Positions 15,739 through 23,056 of a stretch of DNA of 32,000 nt are shown here, one piece after another (the stretch's first letter is position 1; the number at the start of each line of letters is the position of its first letter). The DNA comes from Candidatus Saccharimonadota bacterium. GTDB lineage: Bacteria > Patescibacteriota > Patescibacteriia > 2-12-FULL-60-25. The position numbers and the translations under genes were made by a program. The notes beneath the pieces were generated by a model that searched no databases, was not told where the DNA came from, and worked only from the letters and a program-made list of their open reading frames with translations. The DNA lies in the NCBI GenBank assembly GCA_963718585.1, contig OY970357.1, positions 720,001-752,000 of the forward strand. The letters are read 5' to 3'.

Positions 15739-16187
15739 AAACGAACGATCCACCAGAATAAGACCCCCCAGCCGATCGTGGTGAGGAAAAGATCGACCGG
15801 GAACCATGCGTCCTCTTTCACGCCGAAGATCCCATGTCCTTCGATGGGGAGCAGAACGCCCCCGACAAAGACGGTCAGGACCACGCTCCATCCAAGGATG
15901 CTCAGCAGATGATATCCTGGGAAGATCCCAAGTTCTGCGAGATATGCGTATCCGCCACCGAAGATCGCAGAAAGGAGGATGTGCACGAGGATGCCGACGA
16001 AATGGCCTTCACGGCGCGTCACGGTACGTCGGAAGAGGCGCGGCTGATCGATATCACGGACAAAATTCCCAGCACCGAAGACGGGTGCGAGATGCGAAAA
16101 GAGCAGCATGATGACGCCGGCAATGGTCCCAGAAGCAAGTGCGATCAGGATCATACTAGGGTTGAAGCGCTTCGGCAGCGCTGCCAT
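15717..16187 (-). CDS. Four-helix integral membrane protein, unknown function
   Basis: 156-aa hydrophobic ORF (MILIALASGTIAGVIMLLF.., FVGILVHILLSAIFGGGYAYLA, LLSILGWSVVLTVFVGGVLLPI, LFLTTIGWGVLFWWIV). An alternative start at ATG 16154 abuts the upstream stop. Confidence 0.65.
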   Translation of the reverse strand: MAALPKRFNPSMILIALASGTIAGVIMLLFSHLAPVFGAGNFVRDIDQPRLFRRTVTRREGHFVGILVHILLSAIFGGGYAYLAELGIFPGYHLLSILGWSVVLTVFVGGVLLPIEGHGIFGVKEDAWFPVDLFLTTIGWGVLFWWIVRLWVVAAP

Positions 16188-17277
16188 TCACGCGGATCTC
16201 GATGTTGCGGGACGGATCTCCACGCTGAAGCGTTTTCGTGATCTGAGCGCGGATCGCGGTCACGCGGCAAGACCCGGCGACGGAGGAGAGACTGTAATCG
16301 AAATCCGCGACCGTCCCCGTGGCCGAGACCGTCAGGACCGGATCATTGACGTGTTCCGGCAGTTCGGAGGCATATCCCGCCGTCTGCTGATCGGCGGTCG
16401 GACCGACCACCAATGCATGCATGGCGACCGCATCCGCGTCGTCGACGCGTGCGACCGGATATGTGACCGGGTAGACCGTCTCGCAATGCAGAAGGTTCGG
16501 ATCCTTCTTCGTATTCACAAAGTACGCGGTCACGGTAGGCGCATTCACCTTTTCTGGCATGGCGAGCATCACGGGGATCGCGACCACATGGATCGGCGTC
16601 CCGTCTTTTGCAGACGCTTCATACACCAGCAATGTTCCGGAGGCCGACGTGGGGATGCGATCGTAGAATCCGGTGACCTGATACGGCCCGGGGATCCCGA
16701 CATCCGGACTATACACATAGAAGACCCCCTGACCGATCACCGTCCCATCCGTCTGGGTCAGCTTCCACGATGCCATGTTCTCGAACGCCGTCGTCGTCCC
16801 GGAAAAGAAGAACGGATTCGGCAATGCGACGCCGATCTCCCGTACCGGGACCGCGACCGTGTCCACGCCGTCAGTGGACACGAACGTCTGTGCGGATCCT
16901 GCCGACGTCGAGGTCGACGCCTTGCAGATCCCCGTCCCCTTCACGACATCCGTGCATGCGGTCTGCGCCGGGCACTGATCCGCGCCCGGCGTGCATTCAC
17001 ACAACGGAATACACACCTGCGCACAGACCGTCCCCGGCGGCTGATTGCGACAGAGTGATCCACAGTCATTCCAATGGCCACCCGCCGCTTCGCATGATGC
17101 TTGCTCGATCATCGTTCCGGAGGAGGCTGGCGGGGTCGCGGGTGTCGAGGTCGACGAGGCGATCGGTGCGGGTGTCACGGACGTGATGGAATGGATCTCG
17201 ATGTAAAAATACGCAAGAGAAGCCGCCGCGACACAGACGATGAGGAGTAAGGCGAACGCGCGCGGACCCTGGTTCAT
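16156..17277 (-). CDS. Anchored secreted protein with a Cys-rich segment, a Gmad2 Ig-like domain and a GerMN domain
   Basis: 373 aa. Anchor AFALLLIVCVAAASLAYFY, then a 12-Cys stretch (CEAAGGHWNDCGSLCRNQ..CAQVCIPLCECTPGADQCPAQTACTD). LPNPFFFSGTTTAFENMASWKLTQTDGTVIGQG is Gmad2-like. VTAYFVNTKKDPNLLHCETVYPVTYPV..MHALVVGPTADQQTAGYASELP is GerMN-like. Confidence 0.7.
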   Translation of the reverse strand: MNQGPRAFALLLIVCVAAASLAYFYIEIHSITSVTPAPIASSTSTPATPPASSGTMIEQASCEAAGGHWNDCGSLCRNQPPGTVCAQVCIPLCECTPGADQCPAQTACTDVVKGTGICKASTSTSAGSAQTFVSTDGVDTVAVPVREIGVALPNPFFFSGTTTAFENMASWKLTQTDGTVIGQGVFYVYSPDVGIPGPYQVTGFYDRIPTSASGTLLVYEASAKDGTPIHVVAIPVMLAMPEKVNAPTVTAYFVNTKKDPNLLHCETVYPVTYPVARVDDADAVAMHALVVGPTADQQTAGYASELPEHVNDPVLTVSATGTVADFDYSLSSVAGSCRVTAIRAQITKTLQRGDPSRNIEIRVNGSAAEALQP

Positions 17278-17281
17278 AGCA

Positions 17282-18139
17282 TTACGGATTGGGCATCACG
17301 ATGATCATCACCGGTTTGCCGGTCGGGACATTCCCATTGTTCCAGTCATGCGCCGCACCCATGAGTGCGTCGTAGGTATAGGTGAAATCGGCGCCATTAC
17401 GCGTGCCTGGATCGTTCGTGATGAACCGATCTGCGGTGTACCCCTTCACAACAAGCATGTGATACAGCGGTCCGCCGTTGCGGAAATTCGGATTCGGCAA
17501 TTCCTTTCCGGAAAACGGGATGATCACCGGATATCCGTTTGCGAGCGCGCGCTTGATCTGGTCCGGACTCTGGAGCGGAAAAACGAAGACATTCTGATAT
17601 CCGTAAAGATCTTTGATCCACTGCGCCGTCTCAGCCGCATCCGTATCTTTGTAATCTCCGAGTGTCTTATTCTCATACGCGACGACACGCTGGATGTCCG
17701 CGGTCGCCTGATCCGCCGGGATCTTTCCGGACACCCCTTTGTAGTAGGCATCTACCATGACCGCAGACGTCTCTTCGCACGCGTCCTGGAACGGCTCACC
17801 CCAGTCGCCGGTCGGCGCCTGACTCGTGAACGGCACGGGTAGATTGACCTCGGACGGAAGCGCTCCGCGGTCCGCGAGGGGGTCTGGTCCGGTCGGCGTG
17901 TGCGATGGACCCGAAACGAGGGTGTAATGCTCAGATGTCGCAACGCCGCCCTCGATCATGGACGTATCATCTCCCGCGAGCGAACCGGACGTATCGGTCG
18001 CAGGCGTGATCCGGACGGCCGGCGGGAGCTTCGGCTGATTCCACGCCGCCCAAAGATCCCGGACATCCGTCCGGAATGCATACCCACAGATGAGGAGGGC
18101 GACGAGCACGAGGATCGTCCCGATCTGCCACTTTTTCAT
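17282..18139 (-). CDS. Secreted peptidase_C39-like (C39_2) domain protein
   Basis: The MKKWQIGTILVLVALLICGYAF anchor favours a start at 18139 (track start 18157). VPFTSQAPTGDWGEPFQDACEETSAVMV contains the catalytic-Cys context of C39-like domains, and YHMLVVKGY..ITNDPG the His region. Confidence 0.7.
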   Translation of the reverse strand: MKKWQIGTILVLVALLICGYAFRTDVRDLWAAWNQPKLPPAVRITPATDTSGSLAGDDTSMIEGGVATSEHYTLVSGPSHTPTGPDPLADRGALPSEVNLPVPFTSQAPTGDWGEPFQDACEETSAVMVDAYYKGVSGKIPADQATADIQRVVAYENKTLGDYKDTDAAETAQWIKDLYGYQNVFVFPLQSPDQIKRALANGYPVIIPFSGKELPNPNFRNGGPLYHMLVVKGYTADRFITNDPGTRNGADFTYTYDALMGAAHDWNNGNVPTGKPVMIIVMPNP

Positions 18140-18145
18140 ATACGA

Positions 18146-18170
18146 AGCGTAGCGCATTTCGCGCTACGCT
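18146..18170. other. Perfect 10-bp hairpin between the PPIase and C39-like genes
   Basis: AGCGTAGCGCatttcGCGCTACGCT. There is no U-run on the minus (coding) strand, so it is not a clear terminator. It overlaps the alternative ATG at 18157. Confidence 0.5.
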
Positions 18171-18201: not shown

Positions 18202-18894
18202 CTATTCGCTATCCGTGAGGGTCACCGAGGTCATCGTATCGCCGATCGCGATCTGCTTCACGACATCCATCCCTTTCACGACTTTCCCAAAGATGGAATA
18301 GGACGGCGGAAGCGGATTATCCCCGAGCATGATGAAGAACTGCGACCCGTTCGTGTTCGGTCCGGCATTAGCCATGGCGACGACCCCCTCGTTATACGAC
18401 ATGCTCACCGGGTCGTCGGCGAACTGGTAGCCCGGACCGCCGGTCCCGTCCCCTTTCGGGTCACCGCCCTGGATCACGAAACCCGGGACCACGCGATGGA
18501 ACGTCAGTCCGTCATAGAATTTGTGCTGAACGAGATAGACGAAGTTCGATGCCGCGTTCGGTCCCTCCTTCGGAAGGAGCTGGAACACGATCTCGCCCTT
18601 TGGGGTCTGGATGTGCACGTATTTACCTTCGGTCTCGGATGCCGGGAGCACGCCCGGGAAGTGGAGGGATTGGTCCATAGAGGTTGATTCGGTCGTGAGA
18701 GAGTGATCAGATGAAGTCGTCGTGGATCCTGCCGGTGTACCGGTCGATTCCGGAGCCGCAGGCGGTGGCGTCTGGACTGCAGCGGCGGGAGCAGCCGGGA
18801 CGGGCGCGGGAGCAGGAGCGGGAGTCGTCGCAGGCGCGCACCCGGCGCCGAAAAGGGCGAGCGTAGCGATGGCGGGAAGAATGATCTTTTTCAT
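18202..18894 (-). CDS. Cyclophilin-type peptidyl-prolyl cis-trans isomerase, probable lipoprotein
   Basis: MKKIILPAIATLALFGAGC is lipobox-like and is followed by an Ala/Pro linker. Cyclophilin core: FYDGLTFHRVVPGFVIQGGDPKGDGTGGPGYQFADD.., MANAGPNTNGSQFFI. Alternative start at 18912. Confidence 0.9.
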   Translation of the reverse strand: MKKIILPAIATLALFGAGCAPATTPAPAPAPVPAAPAAAVQTPPPAAPESTGTPAGSTTTSSDHSLTTESTSMDQSLHFPGVLPASETEGKYVHIQTPKGEIVFQLLPKEGPNAASNFVYLVQHKFYDGLTFHRVVPGFVIQGGDPKGDGTGGPGYQFADDPVSMSYNEGVVAMANAGPNTNGSQFFIMLGDNPLPPSYSIFGKVVKGMDVVKQIAIGDTMTSVTLTDSE

Positions 18895-19065
18895 AGGGTG
18901 AAAGGGTAGCATATGCGTTTACTCATCGTCAGGGCGGTCATTCGATCTGCATTCTCATAGCCTCAAAAACGATAAGACGCGAAGAGTTAGAACGAGGACA
19001 TTGCGAGGCGTACGAAGATGAAGGACGAACGATGGCCGGAGCGAAGATCCACGCAGCTCGCATTT

Positions 19066-20061
19066 TTATGGGGTTGTTTCCCATGGGAGACCTGCTTCTC
19101 CCGCATACCCCCACTTCGCCGCATCGAGGTTCAATCCGAGACGCCATTCTTCACGCATGAATCGATCCAATGACAGGGATCCCTTGGGAAGTTTTGATGA
19201 AAGATCGCCTCCGCGTGCATCACGTGCCTGGATCTGGCTGGGTTGATCATCTCCCGGAGCGTACAAAAGCTGGACCATCGCCGCGTCCGCGCCGTCTGCG
19301 ACCAGTTTCCGCGCAGCCGCGCGCGCGAGCCATGCGCCGCCTTTTTGCGGATGACGTGGATCAAGTCCGGCCATCGCTGCCGTTGCCGGAAGGAATGTGC
19401 CGTATGCCGGCGGCGTACGACCGGAGGCCCCGCTCGCCTGTCCAAGGCCACGCACATCATTCGGTCCGGCGGCGTTCGTGAAAACGTGAAGATCCTGTGT
19501 GATCGTGCGGACGAACGTCGCGATCAAATCACGCGCCTCTGCGAGATCCTTCGCCCCGTGCTCAACGTCAAGATACGCGGTCGTCGGAGCGGTCCGTTCC
19601 GCCGTCACCGTGACGGATGCATCCGGCCCCAACCAGAACCACGCTTCATCCGACTGCCGCAGTTCATCGAGCGTCTTCGCGATCCGCCGCGCGAGTGCGA
19701 CGGTCGACGGGATGTATTCGACCGACTCATGCGTCGCATAGCCCGTCACGAGTACCGGCTCGGTCGCTCCAAGCGCCGCACGCGCAGATTGGCCGGGAGC
19801 CACGCTCTCGATCGCGACGAACGGTTCCATGTCCGTCATGACGCCGAGCGACCCCAACGTCCGACGAACGACCGCTGACACGTCAAAATCCGCTGAACTC
19901 TTCACATCCCCCGACACGAAGATCGCTCCCCGTCCGCCATGGACGCCAATACGCGCACGACTCGCCGGATCGCGCTTCAAATATTCGTCCACGATCGCTT
20001 CCGCGATGAGGTCGCACGTTGCGTCCGGATGCCCCGGAAGACGGACGGTGGCTGAACGCAT
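19066..20061 (-). CDS. Divergent S-adenosylmethionine-synthetase (MetK)-fold protein lacking most catalytic motifs
   Basis: 331 aa, collinear with MetK. [23 protein letters not shown] aligns to [32 protein letters not shown] to [19 protein letters not shown] to WLRPDAKSQVT, and the C-terminus LPWE to FPWE. GAGDQG, GDxGLTGRKIIVDTYGG and GGGAFSGKD are not conserved. Confidence 0.65.
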   Translation of the reverse strand: [331 protein letters not shown]

Positions 20062-20104
20062 AGAGATTCGACCCTACCAGAGCTGAAGGTCCGATTCAAG
20101 GGGA

Positions 20105-20133
20105 TTGACCAAGACGGCATTCCATGCTACATC
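20105..20133 (+). promoter_or_regulatory. Candidate extended -10 promoter for the 20152 gene
   Basis: TTGACC (20105-20110), 17-nt spacer ending in TGc, TACATC (20128-20133). GGAGGA (20142-20147) lies 4 nt before the ATG. Confidence 0.4.
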
Positions 20134-20151
20134 CTTCGCACGGAGGAATGC

Positions 20152-20805
20152 ATGAGTGACGGACCTTTTGACCTCGTAGGATTCAAACATCTCATCTACG
20201 CCGAAGCGAAAGATCGTGACCTCGCAAAACGCGCGATCGTATTGATCAAGCCACTCATCACGGCGATCGACGACCGATTTTACGGTCCAGGACTCCCGAC
20301 CGACGTCCGAACCGAGCGACTCCTGAATGCATTGCGCGACTTCACCGGCAAAACGCAGGTCGCGGGCGCTCTCTTCAGTATCCAAGAACCGGTCCCCTGC
20401 CCCGCCTGGATGGACAGGGGGCAGTTCCGGAAGCGATTCGGGGCTGATGGATGGTTCGATCGACTGCGTGAAAGCCTCGCGTCTACCTTTCCGGATGAAT
20501 TCAAACGAGAGTTCTGGAGAGAGACGGTCAAACTCCCGAAGTCGCATTGGATCGTCGATGCGATGGATCAGCTCGACATCTCCAAGCTCGGATCCCTCGT
20601 CCTCGGCGGCGCCCATCGATCCGGTCTTTCAGACATCGTGTCGGCGAGTCTCCGACTCCCGATCACCGCCGCAACGGTCTGTGCCGTGAACGGGGATGCT
20701 GAACGACTCGATCGGTTGGCCGGGATCCTCAAGCTTCTCAAGGTCGCGATCCCGATCGGGATCAAAAGCGATGAAAACGACACGTGGACATGCCTCGTCG
20801 CGTGA
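20152..20805 (+). CDS. Hypothetical protein (217 aa), orphan plus-strand gene
   Basis: Preferred over the antisense 180-aa ORF (20074-20616). It has more host-like codon use (hand counts: TTC 8 vs TTT 3, about 17 CTC), a GGAGGA SD, a candidate promoter and an intrinsic terminator right after its stop. Confidence 0.6.
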   Translation: MSDGPFDLVGFKHLIYAEAKDRDLAKRAIVLIKPLITAIDDRFYGPGLPTDVRTERLLNALRDFTGKTQVAGALFSIQEPVPCPAWMDRGQFRKRFGADGWFDRLRESLASTFPDEFKREFWRETVKLPKSHWIVDAMDQLDISKLGSLVLGGAHRSGLSDIVSASLRLPITAATVCAVNGDAERLDRLAGILKLLKVAIPIGIKSDENDTWTCLVA

Positions 20806-20815
20806 ACAGTCCTCC

Positions 20816-20851
20816 GCCCCGTCCGCCTTTGGCTGACGGGGCTCTTTTTTT
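20816..20851 (+). terminator. Intrinsic terminator
   Basis: GCCCCGTC (20816-20823), 11-nt loop, GACGGGGC (20835-20842), then tcttttttt. It starts 10 nt after the TGA at 20803-20805. Confidence 0.75.
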
Positions 20852-20878
20852 GTCATCCTGTCTCGCCTCCGCCATCGG

Positions 20879-23056
20879 CTACAACTCATCCACGTCTTTG
20901 AGGAATGATGTCGGCGGCTTCTTGCCATTTCCGCTGGATGATTTCCACACCGTCTTCGAGGACCGTTCCCCATCACGACCGATCTGGATCGACGGTTCCT
21001 CATACCCCTCATCCCAGCTCCAATCAGAACGATCGACATCACCCGTGGCGCGGGGCCTGCGGGATGATCGACTGCCCTCTCCCCACTTCCCGCCTCCCTC
21101 ACGCACTTCCATTCGCTCTGTCAATCGCGGCGAGATCTCTTCGAGGAACAACGATGGCTGATTGAGCATCAACGTGTCATAACCGCTCGTGATGGGATAG
21201 GTCAGAAACAATCGCGTCCGCGCGCGCGTGACCGCGACGTAAAAAAGACGCCGTTCCTCCTCCAACCCCCCTTCTTCAGACATTGCGCGTCTGTTCGGGA
21301 ACGCCGAATCCGCGAGATGGATGACGAAGACCGTGTCCCACTCCAACCCCTTTGCCTGATGAATGGTCGTGAGCACGGTCCGCTCCTCTTCCCCGCCCGC
21401 CCCCTTATCTCGTCCGGCAAGAACGTCGTCATACAACGCAATGTCCGCGAGGAAGCCGGTCGCATCCTGATATCCCTCCGCGAAGATGACCAATTGTTCA
21501 AGATCTTCCTGCCGCTCACGCCAGTCCGGATACTCGCGTTCGAGATATTCCTGATACGCCGACCCCAAGACGGCACGGAGCATCGGACCGGGTTCAGGTG
21601 CATGACCGCTGACCGAAAGGGCGGTGTCGGCAAAAGAGGCCCAACCTTTCTGCGCGCGCGGCGGGACAAGCTCCGCCGGTTCCACGCTGGCGATCGCTTT
21701 GAGATCCGGGAAGGTGCGGATCCGCTCGACGAGCGCGGCAGCCGTCGCAGCACCGATCCCCGTCTGCATATTGAGGACGCGCAACCACGCAGCCTCGTCC
21801 TGCGGATTGTGATGGATCCGAAGATACGCGAGCGCATCCTTGATATGCGCGCGTTCGAAGAATTTCATCCCCCCGCGATATTCATAAGGGATGTCTCGTT
21901 TCAACAACTCGAATTCCAAAGCTTGGGAATGCGCGGAAGACCGGAACAGGACCGCCATGTTCCCGAGGGCCACGCCTTCGGCGCGCAGGGCAAGGAGCTG
22001 TTCTGCGACGAACGACGCCTCCTGTCGCGCGGACGAACACGGAACGACGAGCGGTCGCGCGCCCGTGGGACGGACCGCCGCGAGGTCCTTCTGGAACTGT
22101 TCGACGTTGTGCGACAACGACTCGTTCGCGAGATCCAGGATCTCCGGCGTCGAACGATAGTTCGTCAGCAGTTTGTAGATGGAGGTGTTCGGCCACCGAT
22201 CAGGGAATTGGAGGATGTTCTTCACGTCCGCGCCACGAAAGGCATAAATGGACTGCGCATCATCCCCCACGACCAAAACGTTCTGATGGACGGATCCCAG
22301 CGCTTCGACGATGAACGCCTGCAATGCGTTCGTATCCTGGTATTCGTCCACGAGCACGTACAAGAATTGATCCGAGATCCGTTTCCCAAATTCCTCCCGC
22401 TGCATGAGATTCACCCAATTGACGAGGAGGTCGTCGAAATCCATGGCATTCGCCGCTTTCTTCCGCTCGCCATACCGCTTCCCGATCTCTTCGATGTCAT
22501 CTGCGAAATCGAGGAAGTTCGGATGCTTGAGTTCAAGGACATCCGGGACGCTCGTCAACGTGTTGCGCGCAAAGCTGATGATGTTCTGGACCACCGCAGC
22601 CGTCGGGAAACGCCGCGCCTTCGGATCGATCCGCATCTCCTTCATCACGGCTTTGACGAGGCTCTGTGCATCGCTTTGATCCAGGATCGTAAAATTATTC
22701 GTGTACCCGAGGAGACGCGCATTCTTCCGCAAAAGACGGTTGGCGATCGCGTGAAAGGTTCCGCCCCATAGTCCCTTGGCATCCGGACCGACGAGTAGCG
22801 TCACCCGGTCGATCATCTCGCGCGATGCCTTGTTCGTGAACGTCAATAACAGGATCCGCGAAGGATCCACCCCCTGCTCTAACAGATACGCCACCCGATA
22901 CGTGACCGTGCGCGTCTTCCCGGATCCTGCACCTGCGAGGACCAGGCTCGGACCATCCGCGTGCAGGACCACGTTAAGCTGTTCCTGGTTCAGCTCCTGA
23001 TGATAATCGATCTTCCGGCGCCCACCAGACGCGCCTTGGAGGACAAAAACGGACAT
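20879..23056 (-). CDS. uvrD: UvrD/PcrA-type superfamily-1A DNA helicase
   Basis: 725 aa. Motifs: LNQEQLNVVLHADGPSLVLAGAGSGKTRTVTYR (Walker A), LLLTFTNKASREM, VLVDEYQDTN, VVGDDAQSIYAFRGA, TNYRS, TIHQAKGLEWDTVF, RRLFYVAVTRAR. A ~90-aa low-complexity basic/acidic C-terminal tail follows. Confidence 0.93.
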   Translation of the reverse strand: MSVFVLQGASGGRRKIDYHQELNQEQLNVVLHADGPSLVLAGAGSGKTRTVTYRVAYLLEQGVDPSRILLLTFTNKASREMIDRVTLLVGPDAKGLWGGTFHAIANRLLRKNARLLGYTNNFTILDQSDAQSLVKAVMKEMRIDPKARRFPTAAVVQNIISFARNTLTSVPDVLELKHPNFLDFADDIEEIGKRYGERKKAANAMDFDDLLVNWVNLMQREEFGKRISDQFLYVLVDEYQDTNALQAFIVEALGSVHQNVLVVGDDAQSIYAFRGADVKNILQFPDRWPNTSIYKLLTNYRSTPEILDLANESLSHNVEQFQKDLAAVRPTGARPLVVPCSSARQEASFVAEQLLALRAEGVALGNMAVLFRSSAHSQALEFELLKRDIPYEYRGGMKFFERAHIKDALAYLRIHHNPQDEAAWLRVLNMQTGIGAATAAALVERIRTFPDLKAIASVEPAELVPPRAQKGWASFADTALSVSGHAPEPGPMLRAVLGSAYQEYLEREYPDWRERQEDLEQLVIFAEGYQDATGFLADIALYDDVLAGRDKGAGGEEERTVLTTIHQAKGLEWDTVFVIHLADSAFPNRRAMSEEGGLEEERRLFYVAVTRARTRLFLTYPITSGYDTLMLNQPSLFLEEISPRLTERMEVREGGGKWGEGSRSSRRPRATGDVDRSDWSWDEGYEEPSIQIGRDGERSSKTVWKSSSGNGKKPPTSFLKDVDEL

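Follow-up and report, generated by a model that had tools for sequence, protein, structure and literature searches.

A MetK-fold protein with a degenerate active site is retained in the ancestral metK slot of a Patescibacteria family

INTRODUCTION

MetK, the S-adenosylmethionine (SAM) synthetase, is among the most conserved enzymes in biology, and its active sites lie at the dimer interface. The window, by which we mean the whole stretch of 32,000 nt that was analysed, contains a gene whose product is collinear with MetK and differs from it at many catalytic positions. From the letters alone, the original prediction had regarded this product as a pseudoenzyme or a repurposed MetK fold. It had also pointed out that the source of SAM would be an open question if the genome had no other metK homologue. 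Here we ask what this protein still is, how it came to its place and how a cell carrying it may obtain SAM.

RESULTS

The gene product retains the MetK fold

The open reading frame is real, and the claimed collinearity of its 331-aa product with MetK was borne out by profile searches (Table 1). In Pfam, S-AdoMet_synt_N (3.8e-14, 53.5 bits against a gathering score of 33.1) and S-AdoMet_synt_M (1.1e-9, 38.8 bits against 29) were both detected above threshold. S-AdoMet_synt_C reached 22.3 bits and stayed below its gathering score of 25, so that not all three MetK domains pass. The NCBIfam metK model TIGR01034 gave 90.8 bits for the protein, far from the equivalog cut-off of 309.4, and 85.4 bits for the gene in a six-frame search of the genome. 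Solved MetK structures were matched at about 1e-19 by HMMER, with a plant MetK as the top match (3.6e-19). Identity to canonical MetK was 24-29%. Compared with the 384 aa of E. coli MetK the protein lacks 53 residues, close to the 50 or so that had been estimated.

The fold was addressed by structure modelling, as had been proposed. An AF2 model based on a family alignment of 91 sequences had a pLDDT of 96.8 and a pTM of 0.94. Superposition of this model on MAT2A from human and on MetKs from plants, protists and bacteria aligned 329 of 331 residues (Z 38.9, rmsd 2.0 Å), and Foldseek matched it to MetK with an E-value of 4.6e-29. In the model, the three-domain MetK scaffold is complete. A search of the ESM Atlas matched only short MetK-like clusters, some of them from phages. 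A role of the gene in defence was considered and rejected, as PADLOC gave no match. No SAM riboswitch reached the gathering score anywhere in the window, and a scan for promoters and terminators around the gene yielded nothing informative.

Table 1. Location of the features in the window that are discussed in the text
Feature	Position	Strand	Basis or remark
Degenerate MetK-fold gene, 331 aa	19066..20061	-	ORF, Pfam N and M domains, TIGR01034 score, AF2 model, structure match, 6/20 signature
GHPD motif (kept), residues 10-13, with the equivalents of His14 and Asp16 of E. coli MetK	20023..20034	-	Alignments
WLGPDA strand, residues 143-148; D163 kept, K165 replaced by Ser (PDAK to PDAS)	19618..19635	-	Alignments
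Ancestral GD.GLTGRK triphosphate loop, now a divergent ten-residue stretch, residues 207-216	19414..19443	-	D238 and K245 lost, R244 kept
Ancestral GGGAFSGKD P-loop, now ATAAMAGLD, residues 226-234	19360..19386	-	K265 lost, D266 kept
Putative uvrD/pcrA-type helicase, upstream slot member	20879..23056	-	Upstream of the MetK-like gene in 27/31 loci
Gap ORF, 217 aa	20152-20805	+	No Pfam match; no homologue in syntenic loci
Gap ORF, 180 aa	20074-20616	-	No Pfam match
Cyclophilin-type PPIase with N-terminal lipoprotein-like leader, downstream slot member	18202..18912	-	Pfam Pro_isomerase 1.8e-39
Peptidase_C39_2-like protein, slot member	17282..18157	-	Pfam 5.4e-12 and synteny
Gmad2/Germane-domain protein, slot member	16156..17277	-	Pfam and synteny
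Memo-like/PGA_cap protein, 674 aa	13867-15891	-	Memo-like domain (140-286) and complete PGA_cap/CapA domain (378-603)
Tandem pair of genes for cofactor-independent phosphoglycerate mutases of 525 and 523 aa	27392-30542	-	iPGM_N and Metalloenzyme domains in both

Most active-site residues are replaced

For the active-site comparison, 243 proteins were aligned, namely E. coli MetK, 16 MetK genes from the genomes of relatives and the matches of two database searches. Twenty positions were scored as a signature (E. coli numbering: H14, D16, E42, E55, Q98, A116, D118, Q119, D163, K165, F230, D238, R244, K245, D249, K265, D266, K269, D271 and R272). Every canonical MetK examined kept 18-20 of these residues, including the compact Patescibacteria forms of 317-364 aa. 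In contrast, the window protein kept 6/20, with 14 invariant residues replaced, and members of its taxonomic family, here termed f1, kept between 2 and 7. The small size of the protein is not the cause of these losses, since canonical MetKs of only 317-321 aa retain 18-20 of the 20.

The motifs that were said to be kept were all recovered in HMMER and MAFFT alignments: GHPD, GYAT (residues 107-110, corresponding to GYAT.ET), WLxPDA and PWE (residues 326-328). The same alignments agreed with most of the replacements proposed by hand alignment, that is the change of Lys165 (PDAK to PDAS), of the GDxGLTGRKIIVDTYGG loop (aligned over GD.GLTGRK..D), of GGGAFSGKD to ATAAMAGLD and of DRSAAY to QKGGAW. 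In the last of these, D271 and R272 have become Q and K, and K269 just before them is a His. Two assignments needed correction. The glutamate of the K+ site is indeed lost (E42 to G), but the triplet aligned with CET is IGV, one residue off the proposed GVH. Likewise, GAGDQG is lost, but it aligns with GATEPV (98-103) and not with APGQSA (88-93). Both corrections leave the conclusion unchanged. We also considered that the catalytic residues might be conserved and only shifted relative to the hand alignment; the losses were still seen in the profile and MAFFT alignments.

Ordered by function, the losses affect each class of ligand. Among the triphosphate residues R244 alone is kept, with K165, K245, K265 and K269 replaced by S, T, L and H. 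Among the metal ligands D16 is kept, and E42, the GAGDQG aspartate segment (now GATEPV) and D271 are replaced. Of the contacts to methionine and adenosine, D163 remains, E55 is changed to D, and Q98, F230 and D238 are changed to V, N and A. Throughout f1 the loss set comprises the four triphosphate lysines, the K+ glutamate, the aspartate of GAGDQG, the adenine-stacking phenylalanine and the methionine-binding glutamine and aspartate.

Next to the identity of the replacements, their variability was read for each column over 125 family members as entropy percentiles. The A116, D118, F230, K245 and K265 columns lie in the 88th-99th percentile, with K245 at the 99th and K265 at the 90th, and the K165 and D249 columns are gaps in the family alignment. 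No conserved basic residues that could compensate were seen at the replaced columns. Other positions are still conserved: D16 in 90%, D163 in 93%, H14 in 79% and a Lys in place of R272 in 73% of members, with an acidic residue in 89% at the E55 column and in 84% at the D266 column. The active-site loops have retained their Gly/Pro scaffold as well. Judged by these alignments, the ligands for ATP triphosphate, K+, adenine stacking and methionine are gone and no new fixed constellation has taken their place; a small acidic/His subset stays. This subset (H14, D16, acidic E55, D163, acidic D266 and R272K) may form a small residual or altered site.

From the residues alone we infer that the degenerate protein is inactive, and we consider it very probable that the window protein is not a SAM synthetase. 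By sequence it is a MetK/MAT homologue. Of the features that define the family, however, it does not reach the equivalog and C-domain scores and has not kept the full set of ligands for triphosphate, metal and substrate, and it should not be annotated as a methionine adenosyltransferase.

The gene lies in the slot of canonical metK

We then considered the neighbourhood of the gene. A common gene order is kept in about 30 loci and runs iPGM, nth, PAP2, an unnamed gene family, uvrD, the MetK-like gene, cyclophilin, C39-like, Gmad2/Germane, PGA_cap/Memo, xseA and xseB, with the whole block from iPGM to xseB on one strand. In sister families uvrD also precedes canonical metK, and the cyclophilin gene lies downstream of degenerate, intermediate and some canonical MetK copies. 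The operon-like run of secreted-protein genes noted in the original prediction is present downstream. However, it offers no functional hint, because canonical metK fills the same slot in sister families. A function deduced from the neighbours was therefore rejected: the order uvrD-MetK-cyclophilin-C39-Gmad2 goes back to the slot of canonical metK, and unrelated housekeeping genes (iPGM, nth, PAP2, xseAB) are part of the block as well.

Three further observations concern this region. An 818-bp gap (20062-20878) with two overlapping antisense ORFs separates uvrD from the MetK-like gene. Since the MetK-like gene directly follows uvrD in several relatives, the gap may be an insertion in this genome. 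In 19 loci the two-domain Memo-like/PGA_cap protein is also encoded downstream within the conserved block. The phosphoglycerate mutase genes of the window form a tandem pair.

The slot copy has degenerated in place

Comparison of the slot between families revealed a graded series. In sister families it is occupied by fully canonical genes (19-20/20) or by intermediates (9-15/20), with the f1 genes (2-7/20) as the end point. Single canonical compact MetKs in the slot were found as metK-cyclophilin in G093, as uvrD-metK-C39 in G099 and G289 and as uvrD-metK in G169. The intermediates lie upstream of the same cyclophilin gene on the same strand. They mostly keep the triphosphate lysines and F230, and have lost metal and methionine ligands. 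In at least four genomes (G370, G304, G425 and G055) they co-occur with a fully canonical copy, and the second canonical copies are located away from the slot neighbours.

A phylogeny, one of the checks suggested at the outset, resolved the degenerate clade. In a tree rooted on E. coli-type MetKs, the degenerate lineage (support 99) is nested within the canonical genes located in the slot, with the intermediates as its first branches and f1 as a clade (support 100) on a long stem of 1.62. The supports are SH-aLRT values from quick searches in which long-branch attraction is possible. An earlier tree of 89 rows had the same split. Synteny gives the same branching order and thus supports it independently of the tree. 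Gene order and tree identify the window gene as a positional orthologue of the ancestral compact metK that has degenerated in place, and not as a stray duplicate.

The second copies had a further feature. SAM-I riboswitches (RF00162) were detected at L073:6211-6306 in G370 (61.6 bits) and at L074:6311-6407 in G304 (56.3 bits), in both cases directly upstream of a fully canonical mini-MetK second copy of 317-319 aa. No SAM-I riboswitch was found at the degenerate or intermediate slot copies or at the window gene. In G277 an intermediate MetK paralogue (L068:6573-9251) lies within an open frame of 892 aa, and may be joined to a further domain or have a long extension.

The gene is kept throughout the family under relaxed constraint

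With the metK model, the degenerate gene was detected in 35 of 36 f1 genomes. The 36th, G026, holds a very divergent copy that was detected with a family profile. In a second, evenly drawn and independent sample of the class, the same profile matched all 13 f1 genomes at 296-474 bits, and no other family exceeded 277 bits. Metagenomes added about 100 clusters of around 329 aa homologous to the window protein. A canonical metK of 397-427 bits is encoded elsewhere in the genome, beside the degenerate gene, in 7/36 f1 genomes.

The family alignment has a mean column identity of 52%, and many family-specific positions are conserved in more than 90% of members. Conserved residues specific to the family lie at S55-V61, E79-F81, W141-G145 and R280-D286. 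Compared over the same pairs of genomes, canonical copies share 65-74% identity and degenerate copies 38-53%. Median identity to the window is 43% for the degenerate gene and 60-72% for uvrD, nth, xseA, iPGM and cyclophilin. PAP2 and the genes of the C39-like and Gmad2 proteins evolve at a similar rate. Because even a same-genus orthologue is only 55% identical to the window protein, synonymous sites are likely saturated. These comparisons indicate that the degenerate gene is under relaxed yet persistent constraint and is not neutral.

Wherever database homologues are named, among the matches listed, they are labelled Patescibacteria or Candidatus Uhrbacteria. Also among the matches listed are MAG records of an 'uncultured Gammaproteobacteria bacterium' (L034, L035, L038, L045 and L048) that contain this Patescibacteria-specific gene. 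The label is probably wrong, as the records with long flanks (L035, L038 and L048) hold the syntenic neighbours too. In genus g21 (L016/G021, L092/G248 and L093/G329) the homology to the family stops at about residue 283, and in two of the genomes the profile search crosses an in-frame TAA or TAG. This suggests a C-terminal truncation or early decay in that genus.

The genome needs SAM and encodes no canonical MetK

The genome to which the window belongs is a single contig of 1,084,458 bp, rated 100% complete. In a six-frame search with TIGR01034 the degenerate gene was its sole MetK-type match, and no archaeal-type MAT was found in it. SAM is needed by this organism, since it encodes TrmD, RsmH and three radical-SAM proteins. 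The question of where SAM comes from, posed in case the gene should prove the only metK homologue, is thus a real one. However, it is not special to this gene: 15 of the 24 sibling families sampled in the same class have no MetK match at all, and life without a SAM synthetase appears to be common in this class.

Import of SAM by this organism is assumed. The genome-wide search brought up one candidate for the exchange of SAM and SAH, a single EamA/DMT carrier gene outside the window (C1:369827-370657) with two EamA repeats in a frame of 393 aa. No other obvious candidate was found, and the family of this one is very broad; the SAM carriers of Rickettsia and Chlamydia are members of the EamA/DMT superfamily. 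Neither SAH hydrolase nor a Pfs/PNP_UDP_1-type nucleosidase was found in this genome. A link between the degenerate gene and SAH/MTA salvage was examined and rejected, as PNP_UDP_1 and AdoHcyase are patchy over 61 relatives and independent of the presence of the gene.

DISCUSSION

A folded MetK that has probably lost its chemistry

We think it likely that the window protein is an enzymatically dead MetK under selection for a non-catalytic scaffold role in a cell that imports SAM, taking these parts together as one proposal. The ancestral metK of this class of Patescibacteria was located between uvrD and the cyclophilin/C39-like genes. Several families carry a second canonical copy elsewhere, and their slot copy has shed catalytic residues stepwise. 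In f1 this loss has become nearly complete, and most f1 genomes, including the one studied here, have afterwards lost the canonical copy. Going by its residues, the window protein would no longer bind the triphosphate of ATP or make SAM. The cell would take SAM from a host or from the surroundings, and the protein would persist as a binding, regulatory or structural MetK scaffold, probably as the usual face-to-face dimer. With four lysines lost from the cleft and four conserved acidic residues still in it, a nucleotide is a less plausible partner than a neutral or cationic one.

This proposal builds on the intact fold, the lost catalytic ligands, the retention throughout the family, the co-occurrence with a real metK in some relatives and the descent in situ. 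It also bears out the original reading as a pseudoenzyme or repurposed fold, since the fold is intact, 14/20 residues are replaced by variable ones and the gene is kept family-wide. Against a dead enzyme speaks the genome's need for SAM without another synthetase, as would be expected if the protein still made SAM. Rather speculatively, the scaffold could be a ligand-handling protein of the SAM economy, which buffers or captures imported SAM or removes SAH or 5'-deoxyadenosine by its His/Asp/Asp cleft. If true, this would explain why the degenerate gene has outlived the real enzyme in almost every f1 genome.

The protein could also be a new enzyme on the MetK scaffold, which uses the His/Asp/Asp set on SAM, SAH, MTA or 5'-deoxyadenosine, for instance, in a cell where the usual salvage enzymes are absent. 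The persistence of a conserved polar subset fits this idea, as does a genome that produces SAH and 5'-deoxyadenosine without SAH hydrolase or a Pfs/PNP-type nucleosidase. The intermediates, which keep the nucleotide-binding Lys and Phe and lose metal and methionine ligands, suggest a stepwise change of ligand and not plain decay. We nevertheless regard a new activity as unlikely. F230, which stacks on adenine, has been lost together with the methionine/ribose contacts D238, Q98 and K269, and the columns of these residues are variable; His14 is replaced in about 20% of members, and the presence of SAH hydrolase or PNP_UDP_1 over 61 relatives is not linked to the gene.

It is less probable still that the protein has remained the SAM synthetase of the cell with a radically rebuilt active site. 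As the sole MetK homologue in a complete genome with SAM-dependent enzymes it would be the obvious candidate, and it does retain H14, D16, an acidic residue at E55, D163 and the Gly/Pro loop scaffold. However, the four triphosphate lysines, E42, D118, F230, D238 and Q98 have given way to residues that vary within the family, with no compensating conserved basic residues seen at those columns. In addition, seven relatives have kept a canonical metK alongside, size does not account for the losses, and many sibling families live without any MetK.

Pairing with an active MetK as a regulatory or partner subunit, in a heteromer with a dead paralogue, is a very improbable explanation. The location of MetK active sites at the dimer interface would suit such pairing; degeneration started in genomes with an additional canonical copy, and both copies are still found in seven f1 genomes. 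Yet the gene is kept although this genome and most of f1 have no canonical partner, which excludes such a role as the present function here. Just as improbable is a functionless relic not yet erased, for although the gene evolves at about double the rate of the canonical copy and faster than its housekeeping neighbours, and is truncated with in-frame stops in one genus, a full-length frame of about 329 aa is present in 36/36 sampled f1 genomes and some 100 metagenomic clusters, many family-specific positions exceed 90% conservation, the AF2 model built on the family alignment has very high confidence, and neutral ORFs of 1 kb are not kept family-wide in genomes of about 1 Mb.

With the dead-enzyme scaffold as the preferred reading, a whole bacterial family of Uhrbacteria-like Patescibacteria would keep MetK as a folded shell minus its chemistry. 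New here are the positional orthology with the ancestral metK and the graded series in the same slot. The intermediates of sister families at this locus would then offer a natural series of how an essential enzyme changes into something different when a host can supply its product. Some sources label these degenerate proteins 'S-adenosylmethionine synthetase', and reconstructions of Uhrbacteria-like genomes would thereby wrongly score SAM synthesis as present. The questions that are sharpened are how Patescibacteria without MetK acquire SAM and dispose of SAH, and of what value a non-catalytic MetK scaffold is in a 1-Mb genome.

Comparison with known systems

A literature search found no paper on a degenerate MetK in Patescibacteria. 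The trypanosome AdoMetDC prozyme is a catalytically dead paralogue that works only when paired with its active paralogue (PMC6221367). The likeness lies in a dead copy of a SAM-pathway enzyme that is kept by selection. The difference is that the genome studied here has no active paralogue, and a canonical copy accompanies the degenerate gene in only 7/36 relatives, which does not fit the prozyme type.

Canonical MetK/MAT (EC 2.5.1.6; TIGR01034; PF00438, PF02772 and PF02773), as represented by E. coli MetK and human MAT2A, has the same three-domain fold. The GHPD, GYAT.ET, PD and PWE motifs are shared as well, as is the Gly/Pro loop scaffold. Unlike canonical MetK, the window protein has 14/20 active-site residues replaced and is 53 residues shorter. 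The intermediate paralogues, for example the slot copies in G370, G304, G425 and G055, belong to the same lineage (the split with SH-aLRT support 99) and occupy the same position upstream of cyclophilin. NCBI records of Candidatus Uhrbacteria named 'methionine adenosyltransferase domain-containing protein' group with them. They differ from the window protein in keeping 9-15/20 residues and in having a canonical copy in the same genome. The compact canonical MetK of Patescibacteria (317-364 aa) represents the ancestor type. It keeps 18-20/20 residues, compared with 6/20 in the window protein, and mostly scores above the metK cut-off. At the same time it shares the uvrD-metK-cyclophilin/C39 slot and a similar small size, and it forms the canonical branch nearest to the window protein in the tree.
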